Assembly: GCA_015055665.1 (NCBI GenBank) | Contig: SVHX01000001.1 | Span: 1,109 to 65,108, forward strand | Length of the DNA stretch: 64,000 nt | From: Clostridiales bacterium | GTDB taxonomy: Bacteria; Bacillota; Clostridia; Christensenellales; UBA1242 | Reading direction: 5' to 3' | Part shown: positions 9,341 through 38,723 of the stretch, in pieces | How positions within the stretch are numbered: position 1 is the first letter of the stretch | Layout of the letters: the number at the start of each line of letters is the position of its first letter | Position numbers and translations under genes: made by a program | Notes under the pieces: generated by a model | What the model was told of the DNA's origin: nothing | The model's database searches: none | The model's input: only the letters and a program-made list of their open reading frames with translations

Positions 9341-9453
9341 ATAAAAATTAGAACGCAAGAAATTGCGGTCATTTTTATTACTAGGAGTGGTAGAGGGGCT
9401 ATGCCCCTAGTAAGCTTTTGCTTGCGACTCGAACCGTATTCGTTGGCTTAGCG

Positions 9454-9488
9454 AAAAACAGTCTAATATGGCTGTTTTTTGTTTTTTT
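9454..9488 (+). terminator. Orphan rho-independent terminator closing the structured non-coding stretch 9205-9490
   Basis: An A-run, the hairpin ACAGTC-TAATAT-GGCTGT and then TTTTTTGTTTTTTT. No CDS ends here. Confidence 0.55.
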
Positions 9489-9638
9489 CTATGTTTATCG
9501 TTGATGCGATTTTGAGTTGTTGTTCTTGGAGGGATGTTGGTGTTTGTGAGAATTGTACAATGTAATTTCCAGTGATGTAAATTTTATTTAAAATTGTTTA
9601 TAAATTTGTCGAAAGGTGGTGTATTTCGTTGACTGAAT

Positions 9639-9667
9639 TTTGTATATATAATATAATAATTAACGAG
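9639..9667 (+). promoter_or_regulatory. Near-consensus SigA promoter of the giant gene (TTGACT, 17 nt spacer, TATAAT)
   Basis: TTGACT is at 9639-9644 and TATAAT at 9662-9667. The ~125-nt leader contains an 8-bp hairpin, CGTAGGCG-TGCT-CGCTTACG, at ~9686-9705. Confidence 0.6.
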
Positions 9668-9796
9668 ATAAGTATTTTTAATGCGCGTAGGCGTGCTCGC
9701 TTACGTATGTTAAATTAAAATACTAAAATAATTGCTGGTAAAATTTCAAATATTTCTGCAGCAATTACAAATAATAGATCTAGGAGATTATTTAAC

Positions 9797-12700
9797 ATGG
9801 TAAAGTCTAACAAACCAAATTTCAGAGTAAAGCATCCTTACGGATACCTAATCCAGAGTATCTTGATAGGCCTTGTAATGGTACTATCTGGTATTTTTTC
9901 CGTAGCGGCATACAATGTCTTTACTGGCATGGATAAGTCTAGCCCATCAATTAATACTGAGGCTGTAGGTGGAGTTACAGACACTGTTGAAACAGACCAA
10001 GAATTACCTACTCATTATGATCCAAATGGTGATTATCCAATTATTGGGTCAGGAACCAGTGCTGATCCTTTCTTGGTTACTTCGTGGGCGGAGCTTTTAT
10101 TCTTAAACCATGTTGCGAAAAATGTCTATTCGTATGACGAGTTGTATATTTCAATCGCTAATGATATTTTTATCTCATCTGCCCGCGTTACTTATTATGA
10201 GTATGATGGATACGAATATACTGAAGTCTATGGATGGACAAATCTTAGCACTGCACCAACATTACATATAATGGGGAACGATTTTACAATATTCTTAGAT
10301 TTTACAGATAGATCTGACTTTTCTCTTTTCGATGAAATTAATTCTTGCACTGTGACTGATCTGAATATTCTTGAGAATACATCTGGGACTGTCACCTACA
10401 AACATAGTGTTTTCGCATCTTGTATTTTTAATTCCTACATACATGATGTAAGATTCTCTGTTGGCCCAAATAGAACCACGATAATTTATGATGAACCTGC
10501 AAAAGCGAGTTATAATAACGGATCGGGATTGTTAGCGATGTTCTCTGCTGGAACAACATTTACTAATTGCGTAGTGGATCTTAGTAATGCTGCTGGTGGG
10601 GGAATAACTCTTCAGACTACATCCATATTTAAATTCTCATTAATTACTAATTCAGGAGTACCATCTGTATATACATCTAAGCCTTTGGACTATACATACA
10701 ATCAATTTTATGGATGTTCTGTTAGTGGGTTGATTACTCACAAATGTTTGACCAATAGCACTTCTTCCAGTTGTATTGCTGGAATATCAGAATATATTGG
10801 TAGGACAGGGTTTAATATTTATCCACGAATATGGTATTGCTATTCAGATATACAGTTTGCATTGACGGCGTCTGCATCTAACCCTGCATATACTGCTAGT
10901 GGTGGTAAATTATATGCCAGTGCGTTTAGTAATTTCTTTTACAGTGGTATGCAGGCACAGTATAATTATTTTGGAGCAGAGTCTCTTATCAATACCATTA
11001 ATACCTCGTATTATACAGTTGCAAGAGCAGATTACTTATCTTTAGGAACGTTCTTTACATATATTCAGGGTTCAGCATTAACTAATTCAACTGTAGTAAG
11101 ATACAATTATAATTCAGAATTGTTCGAAACAGATGCCGGATTCTTTAATGCTCATGACAATCAATATGTGTCTTATTGCTATTTTTATTCAGTGGCGGTT
11201 ACTAGAGGACCTAATGGTGGCGGAAAGACCGCAGCATATATGTATACTACTTTAGCATACAATGAGTCAATGCCGAGTGGACCATGGGTGAAGTCTACTA
11301 GAGCTGATGATTGCTTTAATACAACTACTGCCCGTGTAATGCCAGTTAATATATTGCCTTCTCATACGGATACATATGCTCAAACAACAGCGACGACAGA
11401 TAGTGATGGTTACTACCTTGTAGATACACCTGCTAAGATGATGTATGTTGATTACTTGAGTAGATACATGATGGAAGCAGGATCCTATAAGATTAAAGTT
11501 AAATTGACTGCTAATATAGATATGTCGGGGTATTTGTGGGCACCATTAGTAGATTATTTTACGGGTGGTCCCACCATTGATGGTGCAGGTTTCACTATAA
11601 GCAACCTAACTATGGATCAACATAGAAATGCTGCAGTTGGTAATACAACAATACTTACCGGTTCTAGCACTGGCACGAGAACTCCGGGATATGCGTATGC
11701 TCTGGGGCTCATAGGTAATATTCGTGGTGCGGCGACTATTCAAAATTTGAAGATGTCCGCAACTAATATTATTACATATTCACATAACTATAATACATTT
11801 CATATAAACAGGGATGTAGCAGATAGTTCTGAGGGAATTCATGCTATTTATGGAGCAGGTGTAGACTCAACGTCTACTACGGGGATAGGATCCTATGCTA
11901 ATAATCAACCAGTAGCAGCGGGGTGTTTTGTTGGTTCAGCAGCGTATTTTGGACATGCGGGATATGTGGGGGGTACTGTTACACCTGTTGGGAATGCTGT
12001 TAACATATACAACTCCACGAATATTAATACAACAATACATTTTAGAAGTACACCTATAACTAATGCGGCTTATGTTACTGTTCCTGTCAATACAGTACTT
12101 ACTGGTACTCGTTCTATGTATACAAGTTCTTGTATAGGGCGGTTGCTAAAGACAACCGTCACGTTGGATGGTGTTGTAACGTCTGGGTTTGTTAATAATA
12201 CAGCTGTTAATGCAACTAACAAACCAGGATCCATAATTGGTAATATTACTAAGACCAATTCTAGTGGTTCAAGTTATACGTCTACGATAACAGCATCATC
12301 GGTATATGCAGAAACATCTGCTACTACGAACTATATTCAAGACATTATCGGTGTTGCTAGGTATGCTACATCTCTTCAGACTCTTAATGTTACTGATTGT
12401 ATTTTACTTAATACTGCTACAAATTCGGATCTTACTTATCCAGCTAATAGATTGCTTACTGATAACGATATGACTACTTATGCTAATGAGGGTGGTAGTA
12501 CTACCACAATGTCGAATATAGCGTCGTACGCTAAGTCAACATCTGCTGAGATTTGGGGAGTCTATTCGATTTGTGAAGATTGTAATTATGGAAGCTCGTT
12601 AGTTTCGAATAATCCTGCGTCATATAAGGCTAGTTCATCATATGATGATTTTTACCAAATTGATTTTGTCTTATATAAGTGTGAGCCGTCTGCAGTCTTT

Positions 12701-15700
12701 TATGAGGTAACTGGTTCTGGCACAACACTTAACACTAACGGAGTTTATGTTCCTAGTGGAAGCGGTGGGGATAGGACATCGGATATAACGTCTCTTAAGT
12801 TTGCAAGGCTTCCTCACGAACAATTGGTACTTGACAACAGTCAGTATACACATATTGTTGCTGATGAAGATATGGCTGCATATTATGGTGCAACATTTGA
12901 TGATGGTGAAAATTGTTGTGGATATAGACCATCTTCGAGTAATTTTGATTACAACACCACTATGTCTAGCGGGCTAGCAGCGTTAGCTTCTGCCTGTAAT
13001 GCAGATTATACATATTATGTTCCGATTGTGGTAACCGCACCAATTACCGGGCCTAGATACTTCTTTGTGACTGAGTCAGATGACTTTAGGGGAACTTGGT
13101 CGGTTACTTTAACTGGAACCGGAACTTTAACGCAAGTACAAGACTTTCAGACGGGTGCTAATTATAATCCATCATCACTAAGTACGCTTGGTACTACATA
13201 TAGGGCTAGATTGTATAAGGTTAGCGGTTATAATAGTTCTACTCAAATAGTAATGTCATGTACAAATCAAATTGCATATGGAGAGCTTTATTCAACAAAT
13301 ACAACAAATGTTAAGGATTATGCTGCGTCGTTCTGGACCTGGGCATATAGTTCTGGAAAAAATAAAACCGAACAGTTAAAACCATGTACTAAAGGCACTA
13401 CTGGAGCCATTTCTTCAGGAGCAACTAATAAGACTTTAACTCTTCCTGTGAGTCAAATTAGAGCGTCTTACGATACAGATAATGCAGTTGTATATGGTGA
13501 TGTAGAGCACTTTATTGCTTCTTATAACACAACGGAAAGTGCCGAAACGGCAACTAATTATGCTAGCTTCGACATAGATATTTATAATAGATTCGTTACC
13601 GCAACCATTAATGGAGTTGGTAGACCTCTAATTTCAGGAGGAGTTTCGATCTATAATGAAGAAGGAACTGAAAGGGAAGCAAATATGGGTTATACCCGGT
13701 ATTATGAAATGTTAATCTTGTCTGGGCGAATAGTAGGACTTAGCGCTGAATGGAGCTATTTTGAGGATCCATTTGGTGCATCATTTGTGTCTGAGTATTG
13801 GGTTGATAAAAATAATAAAGGTATCTTAGCTCACCCTAACACCAATTATGGTCATTATAATACACATGCAACGCCTATATCTACGTCGACTGACTATAGC
13901 GATATTGTAGCACAATATGTAGATATGAGTGCACTGCCAACATATTATACATACCTAGTAATTGCTGCGTGTGATCCGAATTCACTCGCTGGTATCCGTG
14001 TTAATATTGAAACTGACAATCTTTGGTCTGATGGAGCATATGGTGATTTTGCCTATACAAGTTCAACAATACCTTTATCGTTTAATGGTACACCATTAAC
14101 TGATGGTGACATTCTTGAATTCTTTGTTACTAACACTATTGAAATGAACTTTGATTTATTAAATGCAGATAATCAAGTAGAGTATTGTAAGATTGAATTT
14201 GGTATAGAAGAATATGATGAAGAATCTTATAAATATGTTCTTTCTGAAGTCCTCTATACGCTCTACATTACTGGAAATACTAACGGAATTATTAACACCA
14301 CTACAACGCTTAGTAGTGCGACATCCCCTTCTAGGATGTTATCCCTGACATCATTTGAAATGCCGTATACATATTTTGATACTTATAATGAAGATGACGA
14401 ATGGTATACGGATGTGGATTACATGCAAGTGACATTTGGTGTTCTATCTTATTCAATGGTTGGTAAAGCTGTTGCATCAAGGTATAGTGGACCAACTCTT
14501 ACAAACAATACTTATACAATAACCAATCCGCTAGATTGGATGGTGTTATCTAGCAAAACCATTACTTCTGATGTAACCATCGAATTAGCTAATGATATCA
14601 ATTTTGAAACATTTAATTATGCTACGCCTCTTGGTCTAAGTGGAGATTTAACAGGCATCAGATTTGCTTCATCTGGCATCACCCTTTCGATGTCAGGGTT
14701 AGGCGCAACTAAGGGATCGCTTACAGTAGATGGAAATGGTTATACTATTACCGGAATCACTATGATGGTTGCCACAGGATTGTTTGGTGGTTTTGTAAAC
14801 AGTATGATTATTAGAGATATTTCATTTCATGAGCCGTATGCAAATAATTCTCCTTCATATGCAAACTTTAATCAATTTTATTGTGTAGCACAAACAGTCT
14901 TTGGTCAATTATTGGGTTCTGCAGGTCCAATTTATACAGCAGACAATGTTAATGTGACAAGTTCTAGTAGAACAATTGACCATGGCATGGTTATCTTCAG
15001 TATTCGAAGCTTACAGACGGGTACAGTTGAGATGGCTACAGATGTTACAATAACTCATTGCAGTATAGACGTTAAGATTAAACTTCATGATGGTTATTCT
15101 GTGCTTAACATGGCTGTATCTCCGTTCTTTGTCAGTGAGTATAATACAATAAATTCAAATCATTATTATGTTTCGATTACTGGAACATACATATTTAGTG
15201 ATTGTTATATGGTTGTTGACTATGAGACAACAACATCAATTGTAGATTACTTTTATATCGGAGAAAAGTATATGACCAACTGTTATTTTGTTGGTTATGA
15301 TCTTAAGTGTACATATTTAACTGTTGATAGAAGTGTTACATATTCGGCAGGAACAAAAGGAAAGCTGTATTACCAGCCGACTGCACATGGGACTATTAAT
15401 AATTCTACAACATATTTTACCAATCTGATTACATGTACAGCACTTACTGATGCTCAGATGAAGCAGAAGAGTAGTTTCTCTGGATTTACTTTTGGGCAGG
15501 GGAACTGGTACATGGATACTGGTGCTACTGGATATAATAGCTCTTATAAGCAGATTAATAGAGGTTATCCTGTTATATGGAATAGTGGTATAACCGTTGC
15601 CGAAGAGGCTACGCTTTCGTTTAAAGTTAATGGTGTTGCTTTGAGTAATACAACGATTAATAGTAATATGTATTACACGGTTGATGCTGATCAAACGACT

Positions 15701-33700: not shown

Positions 33701-36700
33701 AGATTAAAAGGAAGTATGGATAATAACCTACTTCTAAGTGATGTAACAATCACAGATTCTCAGTGGGACGAAACGTATGGTATTACTAATGCCCTCAACG
33801 ATCTAGAAGGTGCAGGTTATACGGCATTGCCAATTGAGAATGATATTAATAATATTACCTCTGCTACTGCTTACTATGATGTAACCGCAGGTCGCATCTC
33901 TATTACATTTACAGCTACAACCACTACTTGTGGCGAATATGTGGTAGACCTAGTTCACCAGTGGTTAGTTCAAGTAAGTATGAAGATAAGTACTGACGCT
34001 GGCGAGAATTACCCAGATGTATGGCTAAGCGGTAGTGCTAATGGCGAAACACTATTCACAGATAGAACTCTATCTCAGGTAGTAGATGCTAATGGCAATA
34101 CAATAGGCTACAATAGACAGTACATAGATGCAGATGGAACAACAGTTAATACGCTTAACCATGGTATCTACACAATAGGTAATACTAATTACAATTATAA
34201 TGCTACCGGCAATATTGAATATCCATTTAATTACTTGCCAGAAGCTACAAGAAATGTAAGTTACCAGAATATATTCGTAGATAACGGAAATTCAATTAAT
34301 GTGTACACATCACATACTCGTAACTATACCTTTAATGGATTCACAGATAGTGGAACCAATACCATAAGGACAGATACATTATCTCAACATTCTGCAGATT
34401 ATATTATCCTATACCACTATGTAACACTTACAATTACTCGTGCATATAGCGGAACTAATGCAGCTAATAGATTCATAGCACATTATACTCCAGCTATACA
34501 CAATGTTAATGTTATAGTGTCAGAGGGTGAGATCTGGGATTATAATCAACATAATGGTGAGGTCGAAGCTCCTGCATCAGTACTAGCCGGTAACGACATC
34601 AGCGACGACAAGGTAACAGGTACTAATATCAATAGCAGTGTATTGCATGGCGAAAGCATCACTATCAAGACACTTCCAGATATTAGATATATACTTAACT
34701 TTGTCGAAGTTAAATATTATAACTATATCACAGATGAGAACGAAGTTCGTAAATATCGTCTAAATAGCAATGGAACTATTTCTTATGTAGGCTATAAACC
34801 AGCTCAATTATCTCTACCAACTATGGAGATATATTCGGATGGATCTTGGATAACCTCTACAATATCTATGCCTTATACCGAGCCGGTAGTTAATTCTACA
34901 GGAGATAAGATAAGGACGTATGAAATAGTGCTTAATAATGTATACGGAGATATTGAAGTTAATATAGACTATATTAGACTATATTGGAACGATACTCCTA
35001 CAACAACTACTACACCATCTCCATCTGGCAAGACGGCAACTGGAGCTATAGATAATCCTTATATTATTGATTCAGCTCAAGACTGGGGCTGGATAGTAGA
35101 TAATGCAAGCGAATCTAATAACTACTTCGAAGGCAAATACTTTGAGGTTACAGCTGATATCGACTTCGAAGCAAGATTCATGCCAAGTATTCCAGTATTC
35201 AATGGAACAATTATCGGTAACGGACATTCATTTAGTAATGTCATACTAGATGGAAATGAATTACTATTGTTATTGCTAGACGGAGCTAATGATCAGGGAT
35301 CTATATTGGGACGTAGGAATTATCTTGGAGAATATAAAGCGATTATTTGCGAACAAGAATCATTAATGATCTATTATGGACTAATATGTGTAAGTCATGC
35401 TGGTCAAATACGAGATCTAGACTTTGTTGGGCTTGATTTAAGAGTTGTAAATACAGCTCCTGCTGAAGATTTGGATCTTATTGTAGGATCAATAGTTGCA
35501 TATTCTGATTCTCAGTATTTAGATGGTTGGACACTCAGAGATGTGACAATAGATAATACATCCAATATTTCTGTTACAGATTCATATTCTACGACAGAAA
35601 ATGCTTCGTTAATAGTTGGAGGTATGCTAGGTGCTTCCGCAAGAAACGGTGTTGAATATTCTAATAATATGGCTGATATTACAGTTAATATTAATAACAT
35701 TATATGTACTCATCCAGAATACATGAATAGTCATGTCGTTGGTGGAGTAGTAGGTGTTGGTAATATTAGAAACTCTATTAATTATGGAGATATTAATGTT
35801 ACAAGTAATCAAGCGGTTTTAGTTGGAGGAGTATTAGGATTTGGAAATTCTACGTTATTAATGTATGCTGATGCACTTATTAATCATGGTAATCTAACAT
35901 TGAATAGTTCTGCCGAAGGAGTAGCAGGGATTGCTGCAATTGGATGTTATAATGGAACAATCTACGATTCTTATAACACAGGCGTAGTTAGTGCTACAGG
36001 CGGATATACAGCTTATGCTGCTGCTAATACTGTTAATGGCTATTCAACAACAAGTATTAATAGTGATGCGGCATTTGACGAAGGATTTGAATACTTCCAT
36101 TACTATGATGTATCTAGTCTAAGCGAAGCTAATAAGATGGCGGAGAGCAGTTATGCAGAATTCGACTTTGATGCCGAGTGGACAATAGATACTAGCGAAA
36201 GTTCGACTTACAAGTATCCTAGACTATGGTTTGAGTGTGCTAATGGTAGTTGGGCAGACACAGACTTTAGTGGAATAACTTTGAATTCGCTATACGTATC
36301 AGGACTAGATGCTTATGTAATATCAACTGCCGAAGAACTTGCATATATGTCTTATATTACTAATCGTAATACATCTGGATATGAGGCACTTGATGGAAAA
36401 ACATTTATAATAGCCTCAGCCGATGGCATAGATATGAGTGGCAAGTGGTGGCAACCAATTGATACAGATATATCTCTTAATATTATTGGTATCAATATAG
36501 ATAAGGCTAATCTACGTGCATTTGATGTAAGTCACTTAGGTGCAGATCAGGGTGTATCTATAATTGGCTTAACATCAAGAATTAATGGTTTCATCCACAC
36601 AATTGGCAATACTACTACTCAATCTAGAGTAGCTGGTATCAATATAGAAAAGCTTACAGTTGCATCAGATATTGAAAGTGAATTTGAAATAGATGGTGTT

Positions 36701-38551
36701 AGTTGGACATATACGGCATCATTAGCTGGTGGAGCTACAAACACATTATTCGAATACTGCAATTATATTAGTGGATTGGTTAGCAATATTGATGGTGTTG
36801 CTAGTGGTTTAGTTGGTTATCTAGATGCTACTTCAATTGTATATGGATGTAGTGTAACAGGATATAACGAAGCTGAGATTGACAATGGCCATCTTGGAGA
36901 ACTACATAATTCTGCTAACTTTGGCGACGATTATGGTGGAAGAGTTATGTCTAATTATGTTGCAGTTGGATTAGTTGGAATCAATATTGGAACACTTAAA
37001 GAAAGTTACTTTAATGGTATCATTACTCGAAGTATAGCTAATAGCATTGTTGATAGTCGAACTCGTGATTCTGCAATTGCAATTGTAAATGTTGGAATTA
37101 CTAAGGATTGTTATGCTAAAGGTTTATTCAAAGATTATGATCTAGTTAATTCGCACATTTTTGCTGGATTGTATGATAATAGTGGATCACTAGAAAATAC
37201 TTACATTGCTATGAGTACATATAATTTTGATAATGTAAATTATTATATTATTTACTATAATGGTGGTGACACAATGGCTCGTAACTACTATCTAGTTGAT
37301 CTAGCAAGTGATCCTAAGGTTGCAGAGGGCTTGACTCGAGTATGTGGTGAAGGTAGTCTGACTACCGCGCAGATGCAGCAGATTAGTGACGAAGATCTTA
37401 GCGACTGGAGAACATTTAAGAAGAGTAGCGGTTGGGACTTCCGCGATATATGGACATATATTGATGGATACAATAGGGATTATCCTGTACTTCGTAAGAT
37501 ATATGGACCTGGACTATCTGAGATAGCGATTACTATATACAATCCGCACATGATGGTTGGTAGCACTCCTGTGCAGCTTGGAGATATGGTAATTAACCTA
37601 GACGAAGATATCCTAGAGTGGAACGACACAACTGGTGTATACAGTATCTATGGAGAGCTTAATACTCATCCAACGCTCAATATACCAGTGCTAACACTTA
37701 TGTATACAGTGCCTATTGATTATATCAACGAGATTGTTGTATCTAATACTGGAGAAGGTCTCATTACGAGTGTAATCTTTGGAGAGAGATATCCAGCAGG
37801 AACCGACCTTAATGGAACTATTCTTGAATCGGAAATCACTAATTATAGCGAATATGCGGGCAAGAATAAGGCAACAAATGATGGAACGACATACAACAAT
37901 AATGATGATATTGTTATTACTCAGATGTTTGATGAGAAGTACTATGGACTATTCATCACTTACGAAGAGAGAGATTTCAATATCACAGTTAATGCTGATA
38001 TGACAGCTCATGCTGATACTGATGGAGTACTAGAGACTGACATTATGACAGTTGTATTAGTACATTGTGATGATTCTGGTGTAGTTGATTATGCTTATAC
38101 AATTACATTAGGTGATGGCGATACTGTAAGTCTAACTGATATCTATAATGGTACTTATGACAAGCAGTATGACAATACCGATTACAAAGGCAACACAAGG
38201 AGTCTTACATACGACGACTTTGGCTCGTGGACGATATACGCATATCTACCACTATTCTACGAGAACAATACTACTGATGTTGGTATAACTAATACTATTG
38301 ATACTACTCATCCAACACTAAGTAATATCGATAGGAAGATATACGACTTAAGTAGTAACACAGTTGTTGATGCAACTGCTCCAAGTATATTACCTTTAAG
38401 CGGTATTAATAATAGTCAGATTGGTGTTAATTGTTTAGGTACATTTACACTAGATACAATGGTTAGAGATGTTACAATTAACATTACTATCCATAAGGCT
38501 CTCGAACACTGGTTACATGCTAGTGCAAGTAATGGTTATTCTAACTATTAA
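9797..38551 (+). CDS. Giant (9,584 aa) N-terminally membrane-anchored surface protein: multi-module parallel beta-helix (GLUG-motif type) adhesin-like protein with a long Thr/Ser/Asn-rich beta-sandwich stalk
   Basis: One uninterrupted 28,755-nt ORF in AT-rich DNA, with AGGAG ~10 nt upstream of the ATG. The N-terminus is a K/R-rich stretch plus a ~23-aa hydrophobic helix (LIQSILIGLVMVLSGIFSVAAY). At least 9 modules start with a (D/N)P(F/Y)xI...L..L...-xxxxL(T)A(D/N)IDL...W.P(I/V)...F.G.(I/L)DG.G(Y/H).I.N(L) cap. These are followed by GG(V/I/L)(V/L)G-type GLUG-like rungs and end in a ...(Q/E)M......(W/F)DF..(V/I)W......YP(V/I)L-like cap. There is no LPXTG or other C-terminal sorting signal. Confidence 0.9.
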   Translation: MVKSNKPNFRVKHPYGYLIQSILIGLVMVLSGIFSVAAYNVFTGMDKSSPSINTEAVGGVTDTVETDQELPTHYDPNGDYPIIGSGTSADPFLVTSWAELLFLNHVAKNVYSYDELYISIANDIFISSARVTYYEYDGYEYTEVYGWTNLSTAPTLHIMGNDFTIFLDFTDRSDFSLFDEINSCTVTDLNILENTSGTVTYKHSVFASCIFNSYIHDVRFSVGPNRTTIIYDEPAKASYNNGSGLLAMFSAGTTFTNCVVDLSNAAGGGITLQTTSIFKFSLITNSGVPSVYTSKPLDYTYNQFYGCSVSGLITHKCLTNSTSSSCIAGISEYIGRTGFNIYPRIWYCYSDIQFALTASASNPAYTASGGKLYASAFSNFFYSGMQAQYNYFGAESLINTINTSYYTVARADYLSLGTFFTYIQGSALTNSTVVRYNYNSELFETDAGFFNAHDNQYVSYCYFYSVAVTRGPNGGGKTAAYMYTTLAYNESMPSGPWVKSTRADDCFNTTTARVMPVNILPSHTDTYAQTTATTDSDGYYLVDTPAKMMYVDYLSRYMMEAGSYKIKVKLTANIDMSGYLWAPLVDYFTGGPTIDGAGFTISNLTMDQHRNAAVGNTTILTGSSTGTRTPGYAYALGLIGNIRGAATIQNLKMSATNIITYSHNYNTFHINRDVADSSEGIHAIYGAGVDSTSTTGIGSYANNQPVAAGCFVGSAAYFGHAGYVGGTVTPVGNAVNIYNSTNINTTIHFRSTPITNAAYVTVPVNTVLTGTRSMYTSSCIGRLLKTTVTLDGVVTSGFVNNTAVNATNKPGSIIGNITKTNSSGSSYTSTITASSVYAETSATTNYIQDIIGVARYATSLQTLNVTDCILLNTATNSDLTYPANRLLTDNDMTTYANEGGSTTTMSNIASYAKSTSAEIWGVYSICEDCNYGSSLVSNNPASYKASSSYDDFYQIDFVLYKCEPSAVFYEVTGSGTTLNTNGVYVPSGSGGDRTSDITSLKFARLPHEQLVLDNSQYTHIVADEDMAAYYGATFDDGENCCGYRPSSSNFDYNTTMSSGLAALASACNADYTYYVPIVVTAPITGPRYFFVTESDDFRGTWSVTLTGTGTLTQVQDFQTGANYNPSSLSTLGTTYRARLYKVSGYNSSTQIVMSCTNQIAYGELYSTNTTNVKDYAASFWTWAYSSGKNKTEQLKPCTKGTTGAISSGATNKTLTLPVSQIRASYDTDNAVVYGDVEHFIASYNTTESAETATNYASFDIDIYNRFVTATINGVGRPLISGGVSIYNEEGTEREANMGYTRYYEMLILSGRIVGLSAEWSYFEDPFGASFVSEYWVDKNNKGILAHPNTNYGHYNTHATPISTSTDYSDIVAQYVDMSALPTYYTYLVIAACDPNSLAGIRVNIETDNLWSDGAYGDFAYTSSTIPLSFNGTPLTDGDILEFFVTNTIEMNFDLLNADNQVEYCKIEFGIEEYDEESYKYVLSEVLYTLYITGNTNGIINTTTTLSSATSPSRMLSLTSFEMPYTYFDTYNEDDEWYTDVDYMQVTFGVLSYSMVGKAVASRYSGPTLTNNTYTITNPLDWMVLSSKTITSDVTIELANDINFETFNYATPLGLSGDLTGIRFASSGITLSMSGLGATKGSLTVDGNGYTITGITMMVATGLFGGFVNSMIIRDISFHEPYANNSPSYANFNQFYCVAQTVFGQLLGSAGPIYTADNVNVTSSSRTIDHGMVIFSIRSLQTGTVEMATDVTITHCSIDVKIKLHDGYSVLNMAVSPFFVSEYNTINSNHYYVSITGTYIFSDCYMVVDYETTTSIVDYFYIGEKYMTNCYFVGYDLKCTYLTVDRSVTYSAGTKGKLYYQPTAHGTINNSTTYFTNLITCTALTDAQMKQKSSFSGFTFGQGNWYMDTGATGYNSSYKQINRGYPVIWNSGITVAEEATLSFKVNGVALSNTTINSNMYYTVDADQTTYRVYHTNGSTNTTLGHSSHEVLFTLTSDAGKFQTSQGASMNLIFTGPNTSWANSDANRDRGYGFKINGVKYKTTALSLTTPSSGVMTIPISSYEASSNTIEVSVETLYVVLIGLREGGLASNVANSGYIAPGSDSGNYTAWGTIIGHKYYFYKKIDFNLKTTYASVIIYTDGCYTFPSSGSSNDMMTFYDTTNRKYQSDSTTVYKRSFNVASGTITSLNYTATKPTSTVDGTNNNYLVYDSTGSTTGGNIMWYLVRTVVVTSTVSGTAGASTGNFTFQIGTNTELNGNYGNQTQYRYQFGYDLNHHYRESTVTIRITTADQYKKIATCYTSNSPGGTAVYDLVAAANALRGSNYSDYHIKNIVLVITPSFNAMADSTGNVTMTVTFAKVGQADVELSGTSAGGSDIGQSLFGQTVKFGSSYDASRTALAFNMSYADATLPVTLNVTHVGTTPANATNDKITVTYGGTSTAQTLTGQTSKTAKAYTYQVLPGAAATFTISGVTAVTNSTGFPFLIYKSNNYNVRFVWSTSAITNLSTSTLTDDLSYTTGTISAATTLYLYIVEVQAYTMTSSISSTYKCEVLDLMSSKSITVNLSYKNNSGTAIATQTGVQTYSSSATVFSDVTISGYTTIPTVAVTSSSATSSDYTFSGNPLTATTGKKLNLSGLVTNASNGTITGPATATNSATAATGSTWTVKTVTIKVYVLNLDLQDEASPNIYYWGIGSNSALNSVVSLSSLSGDISVSSVKLFNVVKSTESSRNIYTITMAKASPVKITRGDDYGSNSRILMPITMNPNEQAMEQYTHVAGNYIGVRGYILSSETASTPAEIIFTYAPLVTIGIASSELADVSYNSVQAKALKHDAITNETISANVYSGGSNNNVTIAPEASNNTAKTYTYNLGSTNSSTPVDIKITITASVSVAGYDFYGWYVGAHGVITSASANTTSTGAKTSVRYVIDNSGTTKSLTIYMNQDCFSYNIASGNYSATVNFYPIFRERIVASGTTNSSLTVNGKIKAELIDTYSSTSSTIYTVNNTSQASASVNNKNLYYYGIYYLSTTPGTYAITGTTLNGGSETGWNGTAAKNAEIVKGTALSGACQIVVNATSRHSFTESNPQYTYIDKTSKDNAGNAGVSFISTHDLSSGSYTYTNWKYGIGSGTTFTNYANNNANYLLTHYTVTIDTTKLVLRVGVSGATYTDDVGTYTFAVNNYCVLSATLTNNFGSTSHSITVQAHFIERPAVVAVTGGDATVGAVTSGVTMRYVRIGSTVSSYSGGVVFTDMGGTATTINTKTSLGSIDGLTYFRYDLGSSKVLASIQLSGTTTGAQIVEISNDGSNWYTVADVFMGDNVTALIDFIADSHINTSAETYYPLVGGYTYIIRSSESDCKYATYTTIPTEDPASGTSVTASGVTINLSSNSGTVYLYVNKNFNIVISNATTLGSLGTQNIFTSVANRSSYNSVGIRLVNSHDTYIDHYNTTNYVQHNLTGLSITPITVYSYKYIKFGAISSVLDMKTDVINDNDSSNNSYIDTALSNLTYAPTTNVGNYYRYFRKSNSASGASDAVKNAHKMRYDYTGNIPLWATLSTTSNTDTSTINATWTSNATTSIVVTFNDTGANTTYNLKGTYTEKTLTRYFGCGHASNAHSGCGVDNTTLTIHTNSRTHTGTYSGATYKVTSIISSNAIASTVFGTGMQGTTVGNRGDLTITAGYFTIFKVETDNNINGNTGNDLVDKWTIVDSVVSSNNSTFNQYKGASRSSYSANVSDAIYGNWIQTETIKTVATYPTNTVRIYHAFVIPVRVSLDAKIVQRNTSLTINYIDDATYNSANDDKLYFEMKWGSIAVGIISVTQGGGSSYLRWDSTNKNIILKSGIAYDVQFNETYDYMGICHYDSNTNKSKHGNVTYVTSTSSTNAYKESANKHYEPTTDDWLKLAIGSNTSGMSSGATLTLTAYFNLYGRIFVNGYDVTSSREPINDATISYTGGVVTNIASGTNTRSITYTTSSAAGSNTYAYFLEGSNPVFVANKGRNSARTIATLPQNVYRVSNFTDRTAFGSGKTPTVAKGTSAMSYSDTSNSKFVKDRLTHTTHADEVGQGGGSDHYYVVIYQTYIPHKVGILAMQFDMTMGNTQSGISTAINGVVSGYQCTVSYETSVFVYTDTFGNKLYVWGNSACNAVPAMTMEGLIPVGGGYIASTNLYYSYNESESPAVYEFNKWTLYDSYASSNWATSDSATNPSAVNTLGASHYTCFISNSYAYPSTTYSVVLKLDYVFTVNLVYRIKTASTGSYSITTQFAGNNFVSIGTSSSPSWKSVANANIALTYSATSRNIYVAAKAPNVSDVRFRIEAFKFATSIDAAGDTLITCNTSSDTALNKGYGYINHNITINNATHGYYFVDIIPVYSFGYATGNDADVVSNNNYSVETYVSTTASNGKYEGLTGFDESLSGYSYAVSGTTYYDAWSVLTITPQLIDGFSGYHKTGTKVGWESANGVTNWVTNVPIATTTSGIYTVTFNPYSSGTTLWDKSFFTGLKYNVQEKTITVNVYLGLVDTAGNSVTYTNALALPQATVVFTTDNISDASVTRTIAADTTLTSMESAAYTKGYYGWVQAVVTITNAGTNTYLFHETDQFRTTGNNITCSSAIVNSITGHNINTESLTTNRLTGTLKLIDDIPASPDKSTTAYLTSSSTNGNIVVSANLVQLFYATINIMTLGEDGISNSDTPLDSFAITNNKVFADGTAGGSTFAIVYDSGIKGYKITTQIEYLDDLSFSLDTIIEPKYSEGTYIRGYIYSFISVNGGRNITSSVNTTNNVMTVNSADMYQAVTIDIYYIPVVELELNISAGKGTLETTFANFNNDGGSNESVGYYTYSGGNATYNNRTNLIYATADTKPTGSVSIATAAISNTQTITATSSAVTRYVYIPMLHAANSKTNLAPVYYTSTATAYVENSANLADRERYIPDVLTYYVTAYSMHNTYVYTFDGNTYTREEMASGFKSDGTAIAQRETANPDVTLTTNFAKTIGTTNYTQYPTNYPASASDTSKLANNFIPMYAKYSSGDNHEGNHRVTCNFLKEYTFSYETYLSYVHANENYMTMKIDGNTYSEYDDVSGTTGRILNFTNIHVTTADAEQELILDWDTDTYEAIYYTSSKKTSSASADVVNVGAPVISDSVAKIINISDLGSNNAYYISQKYVQKSNLTININPTNFTADDQPQISIAQSPVDPGTKVPSGATPIGTSSTFIGSVASNVYTPNNVYVHNATSEVNTISAVLQSDVNYTLCAEYLDPNIFGYYFAGFYFQGQSTSIENITPEDYLSKVEPPTNITINGETILGYTYTFSPLTVLNNTIIARYIRIDQPNDIINISGNAHVEISYSSATSLGAIAAGNTYKTDMTKYSQPINTIQKEDREVSSVTRNFVIFDIYPGYKTDITTVVTGYKNSTLDLTTNFSYGKVSGQNYYRLAIFIGNFTNNGLTDLYHDYALLISIVAKSQTWADNTLAVSKTNGVYKVANGYQLAYCLYNPDIAGSADTEIELTANIDLEDYLWIPVNNFRGTINAKSYTIYNINTATNSTTITNGAPDPSNTTTGLTSIGNSSGLYGTIDARFQNEYDNTEEYDTRGKVFHTSIGGSPNIGDIDSLANEITYYTYAEQTGTGLLGYTENAEIYDLRIAAYNNVYYNTTKVSSNYPYLVMGSMVATANNTYIVNSSINNYGGVGVSYSSLMSVPTIVPIGMLVGKMTGFGIIDGVNVISGTNLSSTVSGPQDAGSYVGGVLGMSSTATAKTYSTSSVSASTHIINVSQLANFSVSSSTATAGVVAIQDTDAVIYISETILGITGSASGSLAPLCQNISDSSDIKVDNTYVSQFVTNASNTTVTSTSGIANNFNNGKWKLSGATPVALRRAIRDTYTPTNVSIADNTTYLITTGQELINHLYSAQTSYSSATGVKLRITNNIDLGNIIWRSYNLPAGYTLDGGGYTITGLLLNDEKPYTADGLTGSAFASCGLVNNVYGTIKNVVISDAYSIIVGDDTVNNEATNSSYDIDDVDIDYFGFVARTLQAAGRVQQSIISGLNESYTNATVIKIGGVVGSDITASNGLYEVEFTGTIDVYSYIKAFTIGGISATSGDANARLHSAAKINVYNLAPTTTSYIGGIIGNSTTGQTLTDSYYGNGSSIDIHGLSATNIKIGTISGGSSNLTRVYNGYNTNYPISGVSASSTNVYSLFGTSKNLEPTKANTLALAKANMTGYDFINVWTVNTDISGTGYPYPILIGNLNAHDITLIAEIEGMGSGETAINAGTIVDHATNYNGDATWGNSYHIDSTLSGDNKLNTQIAKALHSTTLTSHTVTVTPATGYHIARIELDDVTIYSGRMTYESNNNDPQTFDINTMFSTYESSFTAQYAKTLAEESEHTIKVVFSKDFWYIESGIYDLTSGAYQNNDNTDGSGASPTAYGVMASKYGQITTTTSNTFNLTHANGSDLYNNNSAGNTNHWTLANSKTDYYYIDTYPTLESTVSFTFNSRVEYGSGNSIIASRLVGWVYVPIISSNINTSITVSELIANNAYMMISNTGAVSFGTPTGGYTNYIEELFDNSKLDNSGITTDNTTITYTTKDGDKVTNNYISGSTITVRPEESPYGSGVFYAVVEYIAVGSFNDQIHTHIHDIDECFTDGVITCNDDFHAISHTVTSGAFSSSDKEAANCIISTDSTIKYRDEAGSQIDITWGDYIPNGAGHSEDAPQVTLTLANIIAGRVIGRFARTFYDLETDTVRTWYYVYDEVATTVLNTIYEINGSTKTIIFNRKDGEAPVNYDQYINHINNFRVENFTTVTTDPVTGIKYATSELRLTNWTIEYAGQYTFFLRENLYDVTTQITNPQNETETLVYVSSQELGTSGRSSTFLAGVKTDENGVSYYKIGAGSYAVLENNIVHEEVVMAGVYNLIVQVHYNAGSIIIFTQIPNNYFMHHTFKTGSKYRLSDKVGVLARDLTDPTTGLNTVSKTTSYTQTAVNTGVRDNGYLYYIYEVDSTITDIDKTYFYDYGRLTNEAANMIIEVTFEEDKFTYFDQLGLDVTGLTTATPESVTVTGDASITDAEGFISKYIDFTLVSGDNGLTRDTAFVLNNPYKLGYLAYLINEGVQINGKGASQYIYQVVGTLDMYDRYWDTISIFINGTIFGTNINENLYTTATIDNLQLSASDESGFIDLFVGATISDINFTNMDYNHDATHTYNSYILFNLLVSATLDRISVTGTKVDCNNSVGLIYNFGATSILNESYIGLVTKAGSSSNPNGKFIFEAVDKHATIKDSYINVGGYLGNDYTTLLPQCHNTIIEKSGTSTTHTVSGTNHIIDSNFYTKSESEAKSILTDIDTTRIWKYNATTKTFDMVKLQTYELANVAYKVSGTAPTAGDGSKYNPYIIDSLAKYYWFVDKMNTDASYNDDAKYYALGADIDFAGYYVDVIDDFRANLDGRGYVLKNMYYYNNTLVNFAPIITNNGVVDRLYISNINLKSVYTDYSTDTYSAGLISSNNGTLSRTSINGNMISNASYHAGAVAHNYSDGIVDTVIISKNNTINSNIISSAAGESDVVAGVIALDEATTANMLGVEDTNILGYCNIAGVTYSETYISVSNLYSKNIYIGQYNVQNASVVVLNSDTVISISNIYSTATYGNDDDIEGLVVYNLGDGDINITYAYALSQASVPVAYSEGGAVNSVMTESLSASEMTTTKFDPSSWDYARVWSVYGSTPVFKYFNDNIIQLPFGEDYDYIDASTIDDVYGATNQYYTYNIDANDNNRRVAGKYIVVRNASTGDNYIIEVLSGSENGVNIMQTGVGGSTLSQREIVINPDGTIYIYKGATATINVTSVMYRHITEIRLRNYNDTSVDDIEENTQGYQMTYDGDYTNNHRLTDGNKVGVTFTIIPTLDISDMYDRDRFDYYVTISDAIDTYDVSLSRTQNTSTTNNLIYDATITDGTNTVTIRNNIADKDMADGEKLTLSNIEHGKTVTISLALNPTILAKVDENIRVDKWRLKGSMDNNLLLSDVTITDSQWDETYGITNALNDLEGAGYTALPIENDINNITSATAYYDVTAGRISITFTATTTTCGEYVVDLVHQWLVQVSMKISTDAGENYPDVWLSGSANGETLFTDRTLSQVVDANGNTIGYNRQYIDADGTTVNTLNHGIYTIGNTNYNYNATGNIEYPFNYLPEATRNVSYQNIFVDNGNSINVYTSHTRNYTFNGFTDSGTNTIRTDTLSQHSADYIILYHYVTLTITRAYSGTNAANRFIAHYTPAIHNVNVIVSEGEIWDYNQHNGEVEAPASVLAGNDISDDKVTGTNINSSVLHGESITIKTLPDIRYILNFVEVKYYNYITDENEVRKYRLNSNGTISYVGYKPAQLSLPTMEIYSDGSWITSTISMPYTEPVVNSTGDKIRTYEIVLNNVYGDIEVNIDYIRLYWNDTPTTTTTPSPSGKTATGAIDNPYIIDSAQDWGWIVDNASESNNYFEGKYFEVTADIDFEARFMPSIPVFNGTIIGNGHSFSNVILDGNELLLLLLDGANDQGSILGRRNYLGEYKAIICEQESLMIYYGLICVSHAGQIRDLDFVGLDLRVVNTAPAEDLDLIVGSIVAYSDSQYLDGWTLRDVTIDNTSNISVTDSYSTTENASLIVGGMLGASARNGVEYSNNMADITVNINNIICTHPEYMNSHVVGGVVGVGNIRNSINYGDINVTSNQAVLVGGVLGFGNSTLLMYADALINHGNLTLNSSAEGVAGIAAIGCYNGTIYDSYNTGVVSATGGYTAYAAANTVNGYSTTSINSDAAFDEGFEYFHYYDVSSLSEANKMAESSYAEFDFDAEWTIDTSESSTYKYPRLWFECANGSWADTDFSGITLNSLYVSGLDAYVISTAEELAYMSYITNRNTSGYEALDGKTFIIASADGIDMSGKWWQPIDTDISLNIIGINIDKANLRAFDVSHLGADQGVSIIGLTSRINGFIHTIGNTTTQSRVAGINIEKLTVASDIESEFEIDGVSWTYTASLAGGATNTLFEYCNYISGLVSNIDGVASGLVGYLDATSIVYGCSVTGYNEAEIDNGHLGELHNSANFGDDYGGRVMSNYVAVGLVGINIGTLKESYFNGIITRSIANSIVDSRTRDSAIAIVNVGITKDCYAKGLFKDYDLVNSHIFAGLYDNSGSLENTYIAMSTYNFDNVNYYIIYYNGGDTMARNYYLVDLASDPKVAEGLTRVCGEGSLTTAQMQQISDEDLSDWRTFKKSSGWDFRDIWTYIDGYNRDYPVLRKIYGPGLSEIAITIYNPHMMVGSTPVQLGDMVINLDEDILEWNDTTGVYSIYGELNTHPTLNIPVLTLMYTVPIDYINEIVVSNTGEGLITSVIFGERYPAGTDLNGTILESEITNYSEYAGKNKATNDGTTYNNNDDIVITQMFDEKYYGLFITYEERDFNITVNADMTAHADTDGVLETDIMTVVLVHCDDSGVVDYAYTITLGDGDTVSLTDIYNGTYDKQYDNTDYKGNTRSLTYDDFGSWTIYAYLPLFYENNTTDVGITNTIDTTHPTLSNIDRKIYDLSSNTVVDATAPSILPLSGINNSQIGVNCLGTFTLDTMVRDVTINITIHKALEHWLHASASNGYSNY

Positions 38552-38574
38552 TATTGGTGATATCCAATAAATCA

Positions 38575-38621
38575 CAAAAAAAGACTCTAATAGGGTTATT
38601 CCTATAAGAGTCTTTTTTTTT
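38575..38621 (+). terminator. Rho-independent terminator of the giant gene
   Basis: An A-run, a 14-bp stem AAGACTCTAATAGG-GTTATT-CCTATAAGAGTCTT (one mismatch) and a T9 run, about 25 nt after the stop. Confidence 0.8.
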
Positions 38622-38723
38622 GTGGCTATGAGAAAGATGTGTTTGAGGAAAGTGAATTGGTTGGATATTGGTATTGATGTGGCGGCGGCGGAGTCGTGTT
38701 AGCTAAGGAGTAGTCGCCGACAC

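Follow-up and report, generated by a model that had tools for sequence, protein, structure and literature searches.

A 9,584-residue, almost repeat-free protein encoded beside tRNA-Trp in an uncultured gut Christensenellales bacterium

A single open reading frame of 28,755 nt, which fills 44.9% of the 64,000-nt stretch of DNA analysed here (the window; contig SVHX01000001.1 of GCA_015055665.1, from an uncultured gut Clostridia, Christensenellales, UBA1242), raises the questions of whether it is one real gene and what its product might do. The frame runs on the forward strand from an ATG at 9797 to a TAA at 38551, encodes 9,584 amino acids (1,040 kDa, or 1.04 MDa; pI 4.6) and is the only ORF in the window longer than 900 aa. 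An earlier reading of the letters alone (the sequence-only reading) had described an uninterrupted frame of about 45% of the window, under coding constraint and with every other frame littered with stops, and the counts agree: no in-frame stop was observed where ~702 would be expected from base composition, and the remaining five frames hold 406–1,442. Codon usage is native (GC3 of 0.23; RSCU against 22 neighbouring genes, r = 0.94), which together with the stop counts places the frame under coding constraint. Antisense ORFs of 104–201 aa inside the gene were read as shadow ORFs because they lack Pfam matches. The giant ORF is a real gene, carried on the chromosome of an uncultured Christensenellales bacterium. 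Ranking its product among the largest of bacteria, as had been done, was an overstatement: bacterial proteins of up to 85,804 aa have been predicted (bioRxiv 10.1101/2023.11.21.568195), and the size of this one is far from the record.

The gene is probably transcribed as a unit of its own. A sigma-70-like promoter, TTGACT-17-TATAAT, matches 11 of 12 consensus positions (a consensus match only) on the forward strand at 9629–9657; its presence had been recognized correctly, at coordinates 10 nt too far downstream (9639–9667). The ribosome-binding site AGGAG follows on the same strand at 9782–9786, 10 nt 5' of the ATG, and an intrinsic-terminator-like hairpin with a U-run lies beyond the stop codon at ~38572–38625 (forward strand; dG −30 kcal/mol, z = −5.8), so that all three elements of the self-contained monocistron described earlier are in place. 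Two further terminator-like hairpins, at 9173–9202 and 9450–9483, lie 5' of the promoter-like site and suggest that the giant gene probably starts its own transcription. An invertible promoter was considered and dropped, as the flanking inverted repeat (9579–9599/9726–9746) is AT-rich and only 71% complementary, with no adjacent recombinase. The 5' region gave no Rfam match to a riboswitch or sRNA, the only match being the tRNA-Trp(CCA) at 9091–9165 (forward strand), which is a conserved landmark upstream of the giant gene, here as in the relatives. The flanks had been said to lack dedicated genes for secretion, sortases or glycosylation, and this proved true of the whole 64-kb window, which has no sortase, secretion or glycosyltransferase genes anywhere.

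The product is rich in Thr (12.7%), Ser (10.1%), Asn (8.5%), Gly (7.9%) and Tyr (7.5%) and poor in Lys (2.9%), Arg (2.2%) and Glu (3.2%), as had been noticed by eye. Its hydrophobic periodicity is of the beta type (z = +3.6 versus −1.3 for the alpha type), the opposite of helical control proteins; composition, periodicity and the solenoid-type modules described below all point to a product that is probably beta-rich, in line with the sequence-only reading. The conserved leader (aa 1–43; 9797–9925, forward strand) consists of a basic N-region, MVKSNKPNFRVKHPYGY, and the sole transmembrane (TM)-like segment found by hydropathy, a window at aa 15–43 preceded by five basic residues. This single N-terminal segment makes the exported or surface character proposed earlier probable, the product being either exported or anchored in the membrane through it. 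Neither an LPXTG motif nor a C-terminal TM segment was found in the product, and Pfam and NCBIfam scans detected no wall-binding domains (SLH, CWB2 or others).

The gene was searched for repeats at the DNA and protein levels. Tandem Repeats Finder (TRF) and a repeat finder yielded no meaningful DNA repeat in the 29 kb, BLOSUM autocorrelation detected no periodicity in the protein, and protein self-comparison revealed only weak, motif-level modules, chiefly through their caps. These results uphold the earlier view that long near-identical tandem repeats are absent, that modules are recognizable at the motif level and that recent amplification of repeats does not account for the size. The sole recurring unit is a very divergent module of ~400 aa, present in nine copies that make up ~36% of the chain, all on the forward strand. 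Module 1 (aa 84–500; 10046–11296) has a weak N-cap match, GTSADPFLVTSWAEL; module 2 (aa 524–935; 11366–12601) a solenoid-type N-cap, ...TANIDMSGYLWAPL...TIDGAGFTISNL; and module 3 (aa 1567–1935; 14495–15601) both an N-cap and a C-cap (LTDAQMK...GYPVIW). Module 4 (aa 5445–5850; 26129–27346) is followed by module 5 (aa 5857–6226; 27365–28474), with GGVVG/GGIIG coil motifs and a C-cap (GYDFINVW...GYPYPIL), by the weakly matching module 6 (aa 7061–7345; 30977–31831) and by module 7 (aa 7354–7712; 31856–32932), whose N-cap reads NPYIIDSLAKYYWFV...ADIDF...LDGRGYVLKN. Four GG[VIL][VIL]G-type (GLUG-like) motifs 28–41 aa apart mark module 8 (aa 8414–8822; 35036–36262), and module 9 (aa 8839–9236; 36311–37504) ends in a C-cap (LTTAQMQ...GWDFRDIW...DYPVL) and matches Pfam GLUG only at E = 1. 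The GG[VIL][VIL]G coil motifs are confined to the modules. A Flg_new/InlB-B-repeat array was also considered and dropped, the GY.F.GWY motif occurring just twice.

The kind of module was identified through its N-cap. Iterated HMM searches recovered nine N-caps in the giant protein and two to three in each relative, and a profile of 12 of these from the window and relatives (A3) matched 3n6z_A in the PDB (E = 1.5e-8, 37.6 bits, chain residues 41–118), a match limited to the ~75 residues of the N-cap. The common pattern is PY.I...A...L....L.ADID..G..W......F.G.FDG.G..I.N. The 3N6Z structure is a solenoid homologous to the N-terminal domain of IgA1 protease (PMC4021314). By its N-cap, then, the recurring module is of the 3N6Z/Peptidase_M26_N beta-solenoid kind; we count this homology as demonstrated, and the module as a whole may share the solenoid fold. 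Neither the tiles nor the single modules gave a significant Pfam match to PF07581 (GLUG), PF05342 (Peptidase_M26_N) or PF13229 (Beta_helix), with sub-threshold scores of E = 1 for GLUG and E = 1.4 for Beta_helix and none reported for Peptidase_M26_N. PDB sequence searches with the full-module (A2) and C-cap (A5) profiles returned no match. When aa 8830–9250 were modelled in AlphaFold2 with the internal nine-module alignment, mean pLDDT was 33 and only a cap strand and helix reached ~65–70.

Between modules 3 and 4 lies a Thr/Ser-rich central region of ~3,500 aa (15602–26128, forward strand), in which neither a repeat nor a period nor a homologue could be detected; a PDB sequence search with its profile (A4) gave no match, and 600 aa of it modelled alone in AlphaFold2 had a pLDDT of 31. 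The region is collinear with the orthologues in genomes L011 and L013, with 22–31% identity in the aligned aa 2401–2900, where the conserved islands YRxYWSTS, KxTRGD and FTYAPxVTxG are found, including an RGD at aa 2743–2745 that is invariant between the window and these two orthologues. Outside the modules, the remaining ~64% of the chain is unclassifiable beta-rich sequence.

A tiled domain scan, which had been suggested as a check, was run on ten 1,000-aa tiles against Pfam, NCBIfam and PHROGs and found no significant domain; the best Pfam tile scores (E = 0.015–0.027) were to unrelated families, and the best PHROGs score (E = 0.0098) was to a family of unknown function. A PDB sequence search with both halves of the product gave no match. 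Exhaustive HMMER comparison of one 1,200-aa segment (aa 1540–2739) with 1.84 billion representative proteins resulted in two marginal matches only, one of which (P0007) was set aside as probably a fragment or chimera because it also has an alanine-racemase N-domain. In word-indexed searches of 5.8 billion proteins, aa 1–1200 retrieved one 99%-identical fragment only and aa 8396–9260 nothing, while a leader profile retrieved five short fragments (P0002–P0006) from the same collection. Pattern scans of GTDB genomes with aa 1–2000, of JGI metagenome contigs with aa 4700–9584 and the leader, and of IMG/VR with the leader found no relatives, and no literature on giant proteins of Christensenellales was found. 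The near-total absence of database homologues is the truly unusual property of the giant protein. A UniProtKB survey of proteins longer than 5,000 aa, the majority of them eukaryotic, assigned a domain to 38,248 of more than 41,000 (PMC11573180). To be almost repeat-free, with relatives recognizable only in a few sister genomes, is unusual for a bacterial giant protein.

Those relatives share the chromosomal position of the gene. When related genomes were searched 3' of tRNA-Trp, as had also been suggested, four Christensenellales genomes (L011, L012, L013 and L015; contigs CAKJZJ010000011.1, SVHM01000001.1, CAKVID010000001.1 and JAEDFU010000020.1) were found to carry a syntenic giant frame in the order IscS–ThiI–RNase Y–(RNase HI, tRNA-Trp)–giant gene. 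Each frame begins after the tRNA and stays open to the end of the retrieved DNA, at least 1,252–2,993 aa, so that the comparison covers the first ~1,250–3,000 aa of the relatives' genes. Another genome, L091, has a leader gene in another context, after mraZ/rsmH. The nearest relatives are rumen, colon and faecal metagenome-assembled genomes (MAGs). The leader, KPNFRVKHPYxYLIxSIxLG followed by the TM segment, is the sole clearly conserved part in the four syntenic genomes and in fragments P0002–P0006; as a family pattern it reads [KR]-P-[NS]-F-[KR]-V-K-H-P-Y-x-Y-L-x-x-S-I-x-L-G, then TM, opening a very long ORF that continues for at least 1,239–3,027 aa, with P7, V11, K12, H13, P14, Y15, Y17, L18, S21, I22 and G25 invariant in five genomes. 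Beyond it, similarity to the relatives' giant frames is patchy, weak and collinear: the orthologues reach no higher global identity than shuffled sequences do, and only the alignment scores exceed the controls. Flanking proteins are 56–85% identical to those of the relatives, IscS only 56–59%, and since the relatives are themselves this distant, an initial reading of the divergence as hyper-mutation was toned down. Judged from synteny and leader, the giant locus is lineage-specific and long-maintained. Near-saturated divergence of the ectodomain at a fixed site would imply that selection acts on physical properties only, or that hosts, phages or partner microbes exert strong diversifying selection. 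We suggest tentatively, as a proposal that may well not hold, that the locus defines an undescribed family of megadalton non-repetitive surface proteins, kept at one site beside tRNA-Trp in uncultured gut Christensenellales, with the VKHPYxYL leader, possibly a new targeting or anchoring signal, as its sole hallmark and a ~9,500-aa ectodomain diverging almost to saturation.

Most bacterial giant proteins described so far can be understood as assembly-line enzymes or as arrays in which known domains are repeated. The classical giant repeat adhesins (Ebh, Bap/LapA, SiiE and MpIBP/RTX adhesins) have tens to ~120 near-identical tandem domains, and several need adjacent type I secretion genes. Serine-rich repeat proteins (SRRPs) are characterized by a KxYKxGKxW-type signal plus AST, SRR regions, LPXTG and a SecA2/Y2 and glycosyltransferase locus. 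Apilactobacillus kunkeei, a further source of giant proteins, belongs to the Bacillota. The giant protein shares megadalton size and presumed surface location with the classical adhesins and differs from them in lacking DNA and protein tandem repeats, a C-terminal RTX signal and type I secretion genes (the repeat count of MpAFP is from PMC4083281). Unlike SRRPs, it has the leader KPNFRVKHPYGYL, no match to an NCBIfam signal model and no LPXTG, and the window has no secA2, secY2 or gtf genes. Giant1–5 of A. kunkeei are extracellular proteins of 3,000–8,000 aa, with solenoid domains in Giant1–4 (PMC12863079, which covers part of the SRRP features as well). Like the present protein, they have a Bacillota host. 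They further resemble it in an N-terminal Sec signal with no sortase motif reported, and in an atypical Asn-rich composition, fast evolution, narrow phyletic range and presumed surface interactions (PMC12863079). The A. kunkeei proteins contain long imperfect-repeat arrays (mostly alpha-helical in Giant1–3), a C-terminal DUF5776/SH3b-like region and a single N-terminal solenoid (PMC12863079), whereas the giant protein has no repeat array, nine scattered solenoid-type modules, a different leader and, in Pfam searches of its last 584 aa, no DUF5776/SH3b-like domain, GLUG at E = 1 being the only score. To 3N6Z itself, a 'putative IgA1 protease' of Bacteroides with a Peptidase_M26_N/GLUG solenoid, it is linked by the N-cap profile match and the GG[VIL][VIL]G coil motifs; only the cap matches, and no M26 peptidase domain follows. 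Giant genes of Omnitrophota are likewise very long ORFs, largely unannotatable by sequence and with a proposed role in attachment, but their products of 30,000–85,804 aa have many TM regions and mostly SecA DEAD helicase-like domains and are encoded near type II secretion genes (bioRxiv 10.1101/2023.11.21.568195); the giant protein has one TM segment, no SecA DEAD-like domains and no type II secretion neighbours.

A further comparison is with fibrillar adhesins as described by Monzon and Bateman (PMC9210967), which are also very long and fast-evolving, come from Gram-positive-type hosts and contain solenoid domains proposed to be adhesive. They differ in having a stalk of tandem recognizable repeat domains and usually a sortase or wall anchor (PMC9210967), both undetected here: autocorrelation, self-comparison and Pfam found no stalk of tandem repeated domains, and no cell-surface anchor (LPXTG/sortase, SLH, CWB, LysM) was identified, although the N-terminal TM segment could serve as an anchor in the membrane. 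The giant protein has no recognized adhesive or cell-wall-binding domain; the 3N6Z-type modules are its only candidates for one, and the adhesive role of such domains is itself a proposal (PMC9210967). We favour, with somewhat better than even confidence, a surface fibre or adhesin-like protein that is anchored at its N-terminus, specific to this lineage and fast-evolving. The basic leader and hydrophobic segment (aa 1–43) would route the chain through the Sec pathway, after which the segment would be kept as an N-terminal membrane anchor or cleaved, and the remaining ~9,500 acidic, Thr/Ser/Asn/Tyr-rich residues would form a long, mostly beta, non-repetitive extracellular fibre. Its most likely role would be contact with the surroundings, possibly attachment to glycans, to plant particles, to host mucus or to other microbes, and rapid sequence change would be tolerated provided that the frame stays open and its product exportable and beta-rich.

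The rival that survives best, though rather unlikely, is a structural envelope component that binds no particular ligand and acts as a fibrillar coat, as a spacer or as protection from phages, host immunity or grazers, with selection on length, solubility and beta-structure only. Sequence divergence is near saturation while frame, composition, leader and position persist, among relatives whose IscS is only 56–59% identical, and no specialized tip or binding domain is recognizable, both as such a component would predict. Against it, domains for wall binding or self-assembly, such as SLH or CWB2, are absent, and the conserved islands YRxYWSTS, KxTRGD and FTYAPxVTxG argue for more than bulk constraint. 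Nothing in the present data separates an envelope component from an adhesin. Unlikely, too, is a secreted or surface multi-enzyme whose modules are catalytic (polysaccharide lyase, glycosidase or protease) and degrade plant or host glycans. Right-handed solenoids of the pectate-lyase type are frequently enzymes, 3N6Z hits have been taken to suggest 'potential catalytic functions' (PMC9210967), coupling of attachment to carbohydrate degradation has been proposed for the Omnitrophota giants (bioRxiv 10.1101/2023.11.21.568195), and the rumen, colon and faecal origin of the nearest relatives would suit such an enzyme; however, Pfam and NCBIfam yielded no CAZyme, peptidase or lyase family match even at E ≤ 1, no acidic or catalytic motif is conserved over the nine modules, whose A2 alignment has no invariant column, and no carbohydrate-uptake genes adjoin the giant gene.

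It is very improbable that the frame is an assembly artefact joining two or more unrelated genes, or a decaying pseudogene without full-length translation. Both halves were reproduced independently at ~100% identity: JGI contigs match window positions 7302–18908 at 99.98–99.99% with no gaps, metagenome gene calls place the start codon identically, and another contig both encodes the exact 4,864-aa product of 23957–38548 and is 100% identical over 28766–50904. Two points of the earlier concern about frameshifts or a chimeric join stood. JGI sample 3300032167 has the gene on two separate contigs with an overlap of just 26 nt (23956–23981), a stretch spanned by no independent contig, and in assembly L094 a 1-nt deletion at ~12787 splits it into 1,059 and 883+ aa; together with an in-frame TGA in the L091 relative, the L094 frameshift suggests that the giant gene may be dispensable or often inactivated. 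Nevertheless, the 5' and 3' contig products (4,728 and 4,864 aa) sum to 9,584 aa plus the overlap in a single frame, one module family occurs in both halves (the module at aa 524 pairs with those at 5445 and 5857, and 7354 with 8414), composition and codon usage are continuous along the gene, position 12787 shows no deletion in L001 and L002, open frames of at least 2,800 aa persist in relatives, and stops would soon accumulate if a frame of 28.7 kb and 36% GC were decaying, but there are none.

Least credible of all is mobile-element or prophage cargo integrated at tRNA-Trp, such as a giant tail-fibre or receptor-binding protein: the gene adjoins tRNA-Trp, the 3' end of the tRNA recurs as a 22-nt copy at 9320–9341, with additional copies of the same sequence in L013, and the solenoid modules are like phage tailspikes in kind, but no second att-like copy was found beyond the gene, no integrase or phage gene neighbours it, PHROGs offered nothing better than its family of unknown function and IMG/VR nothing, codon usage is native, and four other genomes have a giant frame at this position. 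The upstream 9.7 kb had no match in a plasmid database.

If the gene is expressed, a small-genome gut anaerobe can make, export and keep very long non-modular beta-rich polypeptides, and the product would be a candidate surface determinant for Christensenellales, an abundant but poorly understood gut lineage, with a possible new leader motif for giant substrates. Genes of this kind are broken up by assemblers and appear just as fragments in the protein collections searched, and are therefore systematically under-counted.

The giant gene (9797-38551, forward strand) extends from ATG to TAA over 9,584 codons, and the next longest ORF in the window encodes 872 aa. Its frame contains no stop, against about 702 expected from base composition; in each of the other five frames there are between 406 and 1,442. 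GC3 is 0.23, and relative synonymous codon usage correlates with that of 22 neighbouring genes (r=0.94). Because it combines an absence of stops with neighbour-like codon usage, the frame is a native coding sequence and neither a chance ORF nor recently imported DNA. A sequence-only reading had reported a single 28.7-kb ORF under coding constraint. That reading was equally accurate on composition, as the product (1,040 kDa, pI 4.6) is enriched in T (12.7%), S (10.1%), N (8.5%), G (7.9%), and Y (7.5%) and poor in K (2.9%), R (2.2%), and E (3.2%). The proposed monocistron signals were recovered, but the promoter-like site (TTGACT-17-TATAAT) is located at 9629-9657, 10 nt upstream of the 9639-9667 originally assigned to it and downstream of two terminator-like hairpins that are themselves 3' of tRNA-Trp. 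An AGGAG ribosome-binding site precedes the ATG by 10 nt, and a strong hairpin followed by a U-run (dG -30 kcal/mol, z -5.8) lies 3' of the stop codon. In line with that reading, which had spotted none, long near-identical tandem DNA repeats are absent, with TRF and a repeat finder returning nothing meaningful across 29 kb. The giant gene is real and probably monocistronic. Besides the two hairpins (9173-9202 and 9450-9483), the spacer between tRNA-Trp and the promoter (9166-9628, 460 nt) contains inverted repeats in a nested arrangement (9218-9230/9318-9330 and 9326-9348/9371-9393), and it did not match any Rfam family.

The sole hydrophobic stretch of the protein long enough to cross a membrane is at aa 15-43, preceded by five basic residues; no LPXTG motif or C-terminal anchor was found. 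Hydrophobic residues recur with beta-type (z +3.6) and not alpha-type (z -1.3) periodicity, and helical control proteins from the same window gave the reverse. Ten tiles of the protein had zero significant matches in Pfam, NCBIfam, and PHROGs, and a PDB sequence search with both halves returned nothing. Self-comparison identified a single divergent recurring unit, in agreement with the earlier statement that modules would be recognizable only at the motif level. This unit has two parts, an N-cap (Y.I.T...L....L.ADID..G..W.P...F.G.[IL].G.G..I.N) starting near aa 84, 532, 1567, 5453, 5866, 7061, 7354, 8414, and 8839, and a C-cap (T..M......[FW]DF...W......YP.L) present about 350-400 aa downstream of the N-cap in at least five modules. 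GLUG-like GG[VIL][VIL]G motifs are confined to the modules, which account for about 36% of the chain; elsewhere, a central stretch of 3,500 aa included, neither a repeat nor a period could be detected. A profile built on 12 N-caps (window protein and relatives) matched PDB 3N6Z (E=1.5e-8), a 'putative immunoglobulin A1 protease' from Bacteroides described in the literature as a solenoid that had escaped recognition and as a homologue of the IgA1 protease N-terminal domain (PMC4021314). Since this match spans the cap and not the whole module, the corresponding Pfam models gave no significant score on the modules, and AlphaFold2 returned pLDDT values of 33 for one module and 31 for one central segment, the solenoid-type fold of the modules is a prediction.

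The protein is acidic and of beta type in sequence, carries a signal or anchor segment at its N terminus, and includes nine divergent modules with a 3N6Z-type cap, and we consider it probable that it is a surface fibre or adhesin-like protein. An extracellular beta-rich fibre had been proposed before; the periodicity and the N-terminal segment support this proposal, but fibre formation and export we infer. The conserved leader (aa 1-43) would direct Sec-dependent export of the giant protein, serving as a membrane anchor or as a cleaved signal. The window protein has a V-A-A site (aa 37-39) that the relatives do not conserve. Once exported, the chain would fold into an elongated fibre in which solenoids alternate or combine with other beta domains, and its binding partners would be glycans, particles, host surfaces, or other microbes. 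The protein might instead be a non-specific structural coat or shield, which we consider unlikely; that it is a multi-enzyme is slightly less likely still.

The closest analogues of the putative surface fibre are the Giant1-5 proteins of Apilactobacillus kunkeei, which are 3,000-8,000 aa long, have a signal peptide and, in Giant1-4, solenoid domains, evolve fast, and are narrowly distributed, but which are set apart from the protein described here by long arrays of imperfect repeats and by DUF5776/SH3b-like domains at the C terminus (PMC12863079). Of the tested features that define fibrillar adhesins, SRRPs, RTX/Bap/Ebh-type adhesins, and Omnitrophota giant proteins, at least one per group is missing here. 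The size of the giant protein is unremarkable by itself: bacterial proteins of up to 85,804 aa have been predicted (bioRxiv 10.1101/2023.11.21.568195), and more than 41,000 UniProtKB entries, mostly eukaryotic, exceed 5,000 aa, 38,248 of them with an assigned domain (PMC11573180). The sequence-only reading, whose observation was confirmed and whose interpretation was largely right, thus overstated the rank in naming it one of the largest bacterial gene products. What is unusual is the combination of megadalton size, zero repeats, zero significant domain matches, and almost no homologues.

Searching aa 1-1200 against 5.8 billion clusters matched only a 99%-identical fragment, and aa 8396-9260 had no match in the same large protein collection. 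Exhaustive HMMER searching of 1.84 billion representatives with aa 1540-2739 gave two matches at E<=1e-3 and zero below 1e-10. No relatives emerged when GTDB genomes, JGI metagenome contigs, and IMG/VR were scanned by pattern; the window's own species is absent from the GTDB representatives scanned. RNase Y places the window nearest (81-85% identity) to MAGs of uncultured Clostridia/Christensenellales, obtained from rumen, colon, and human-gut samples. Relatives downstream of tRNA-Trp, the location suggested for a search, were found in the four closest genomes (L011, L012, L013, and L015), where an open frame begins about 0.9-1.6 kb after RNase Y, past RNase HI and tRNA-Trp, and continues to the end of the retrieved DNA, so that its lengths are lower bounds (at least 2,993, 1,252, 2,849, and 2,812 aa, respectively). 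No Pfam domain was found in the three of these frames scanned (L011, L013, and L015). The window protein and its relatives share the strongly conserved leader, [KR]P[NS]F[KR]VKHPYxYLxxSIxLG followed by a TM segment, with 11 invariant residues besides the initiator Met; it also occurs in five fragmentary metagenome proteins. Past the leader, relatives align only at module caps and scattered collinear patches. The sole multi-hundred-residue block aligned across three genomes, aa 2401-2900, shows 22-31% identity with small conserved islands. Global identity is not above that of shuffled sequences, although the real alignments score 3-4 times as high as the shuffled ones. Identities of flanking proteins (RNase Y, 81-85%; RNase HI, 75-85%; ThiI, 63-69%; IscS, 56-59%) indicate that the relatives' genomes are fairly distant, and, notably, the giant open frame, the leader, and the chromosomal position all persisted across that distance. 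On sequence comparison, these giant genes form a syntenic, lineage-restricted family that evolves much faster than housekeeping genes, but the data require no exotic mutational mechanism. It is possible, if doubtful, that gut Christensenellales have a new protein family, defined by the leader and made up of 'dark' megadalton surface proteins without repeats. Within the aligned aa 2401-2900 block, an RGD (window 18017-18034, aa 2741-2746, ITRGDD) is invariant in the three alignable orthologues (window, L011, and L013); the whole protein contains two RGDs versus about one expected by chance. A leader-bearing relative in another context, after mraZ/rsmH, occurs at 10001-11779 of a 35-kb contig (L091, ENA ERZ18242344). 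It has an in-frame TGA after codon 81, and the solenoid module goes on beyond it without a change of frame; each of the nine neighbouring genes has a TAA stop, and they look normal under the standard code. Nonsense mutation, sequencing error, and read-through are the candidate explanations for the TGA.

That the giant gene is an assembly artefact or pseudogene is very improbable. An exact copy of the upstream-encoded RNase HI protein is present on 12 metagenome contigs, and the giant gene's start codon is identical in the contigs that reach it (L001-L004). Two of these (L001 and L002) align to 7302-18908 with 99.98-99.99% identity and zero gaps. Both halves of the gene were recovered in JGI sample 3300032167, in which a 5' contig has 4,728 open codons to its end and a second contig, 100% identical to window 28766-50904, encodes exactly the 4,864 aa of 23957-38548. 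The two overlap by 26 nt (23956-23981), their products amounting to 9,584 aa plus the overlap, but no independent contig was found across the overlap. Because both halves of the protein share the same module family and composition is continuous, a chimeric join is unlikely. One assembly runs counter to an intact frame: L094 (sample 3300024269) is identical to 9776-15610 apart from the loss of 1 nt at about 12787 (GATATAACG to GATAT-ACG, outside any homopolymer), which breaks the gene into calls of 1,059 aa and at least 883 aa. Either the assembly is in error here or the variant is genuine and naturally inactivated. Two independent metagenome contigs (L005 and L006) end at exactly 9157, inside tRNA-Trp, and two others (L003 and L004) at exactly 11016, inside the giant gene, hinting at strain-level branch points in the assembly graphs. 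A 201-aa antisense ORF (23834-24439, reverse strand) inside the giant gene overlaps the 23956-23981 contig break of sample 3300032167 and, lacking a Pfam match, is read as a probable shadow ORF.

Both flanks consist of housekeeping genes, with an IscS-like aminotransferase, ThiI, RNase Y, RNase HI, and tRNA-Trp upstream and a convergent ABC-2 transporter, a DedA/VTT protein, a PadR-like protein, MiaA, MutL, MutS, a PBP1-type enzyme, and RecA downstream; that the giant gene, with its neighbour-like codon usage, is mobile-element or phage cargo is scarcely credible. Sortase, secretion-system, and glycosyltransferase genes are absent from the 64-kb window, as had been noted for the flanks. An exact 22-nt copy of the tRNA-Trp 3' end (GAGTCCTACCACCCCTGCCA...) lies at 9320-9341, 155 nt downstream of the tRNA, and L013 carries three additional copies of a 35-nt version (11906-11940, 12093-12127, and 12230-12264). 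These look like att-site scars left by integration and excision events recurring at tRNA-Trp; beyond the giant gene, a matching copy was not found. The RNase HI and tRNA-Trp segment (window 8462-9165) is inverted relative to RNase Y in L011, L012, L014, and L015 and has the same orientation as RNase Y in the window and L013, indicating a local inversion adjoining the giant gene. At 86-2802, two serine-recombinase-type ORFs (86-637, DUF4368; 645-2309, Resolvase, Recombinase, Zn-ribbon, and DUF4368) are directly followed by a SpoVAD fragment matching only profile positions 200-328 of 329, which suggests a recombinase-bearing intervening element inside spoVAD, similar to sporulation-excised elements. 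A 136-bp unit (2.1 copies, 95% identity) at 44959-45244 is intergenic between the 622-aa PadR-like gene and a YgjP-like metallopeptidase gene. A CD_NTase_C-domain gene (46608-47492, reverse strand) adjoins a phage-type integrase (47637-48695) and a LexA-like repressor (48777-49412), and 46608-49412 may constitute a small defence or mobile island.
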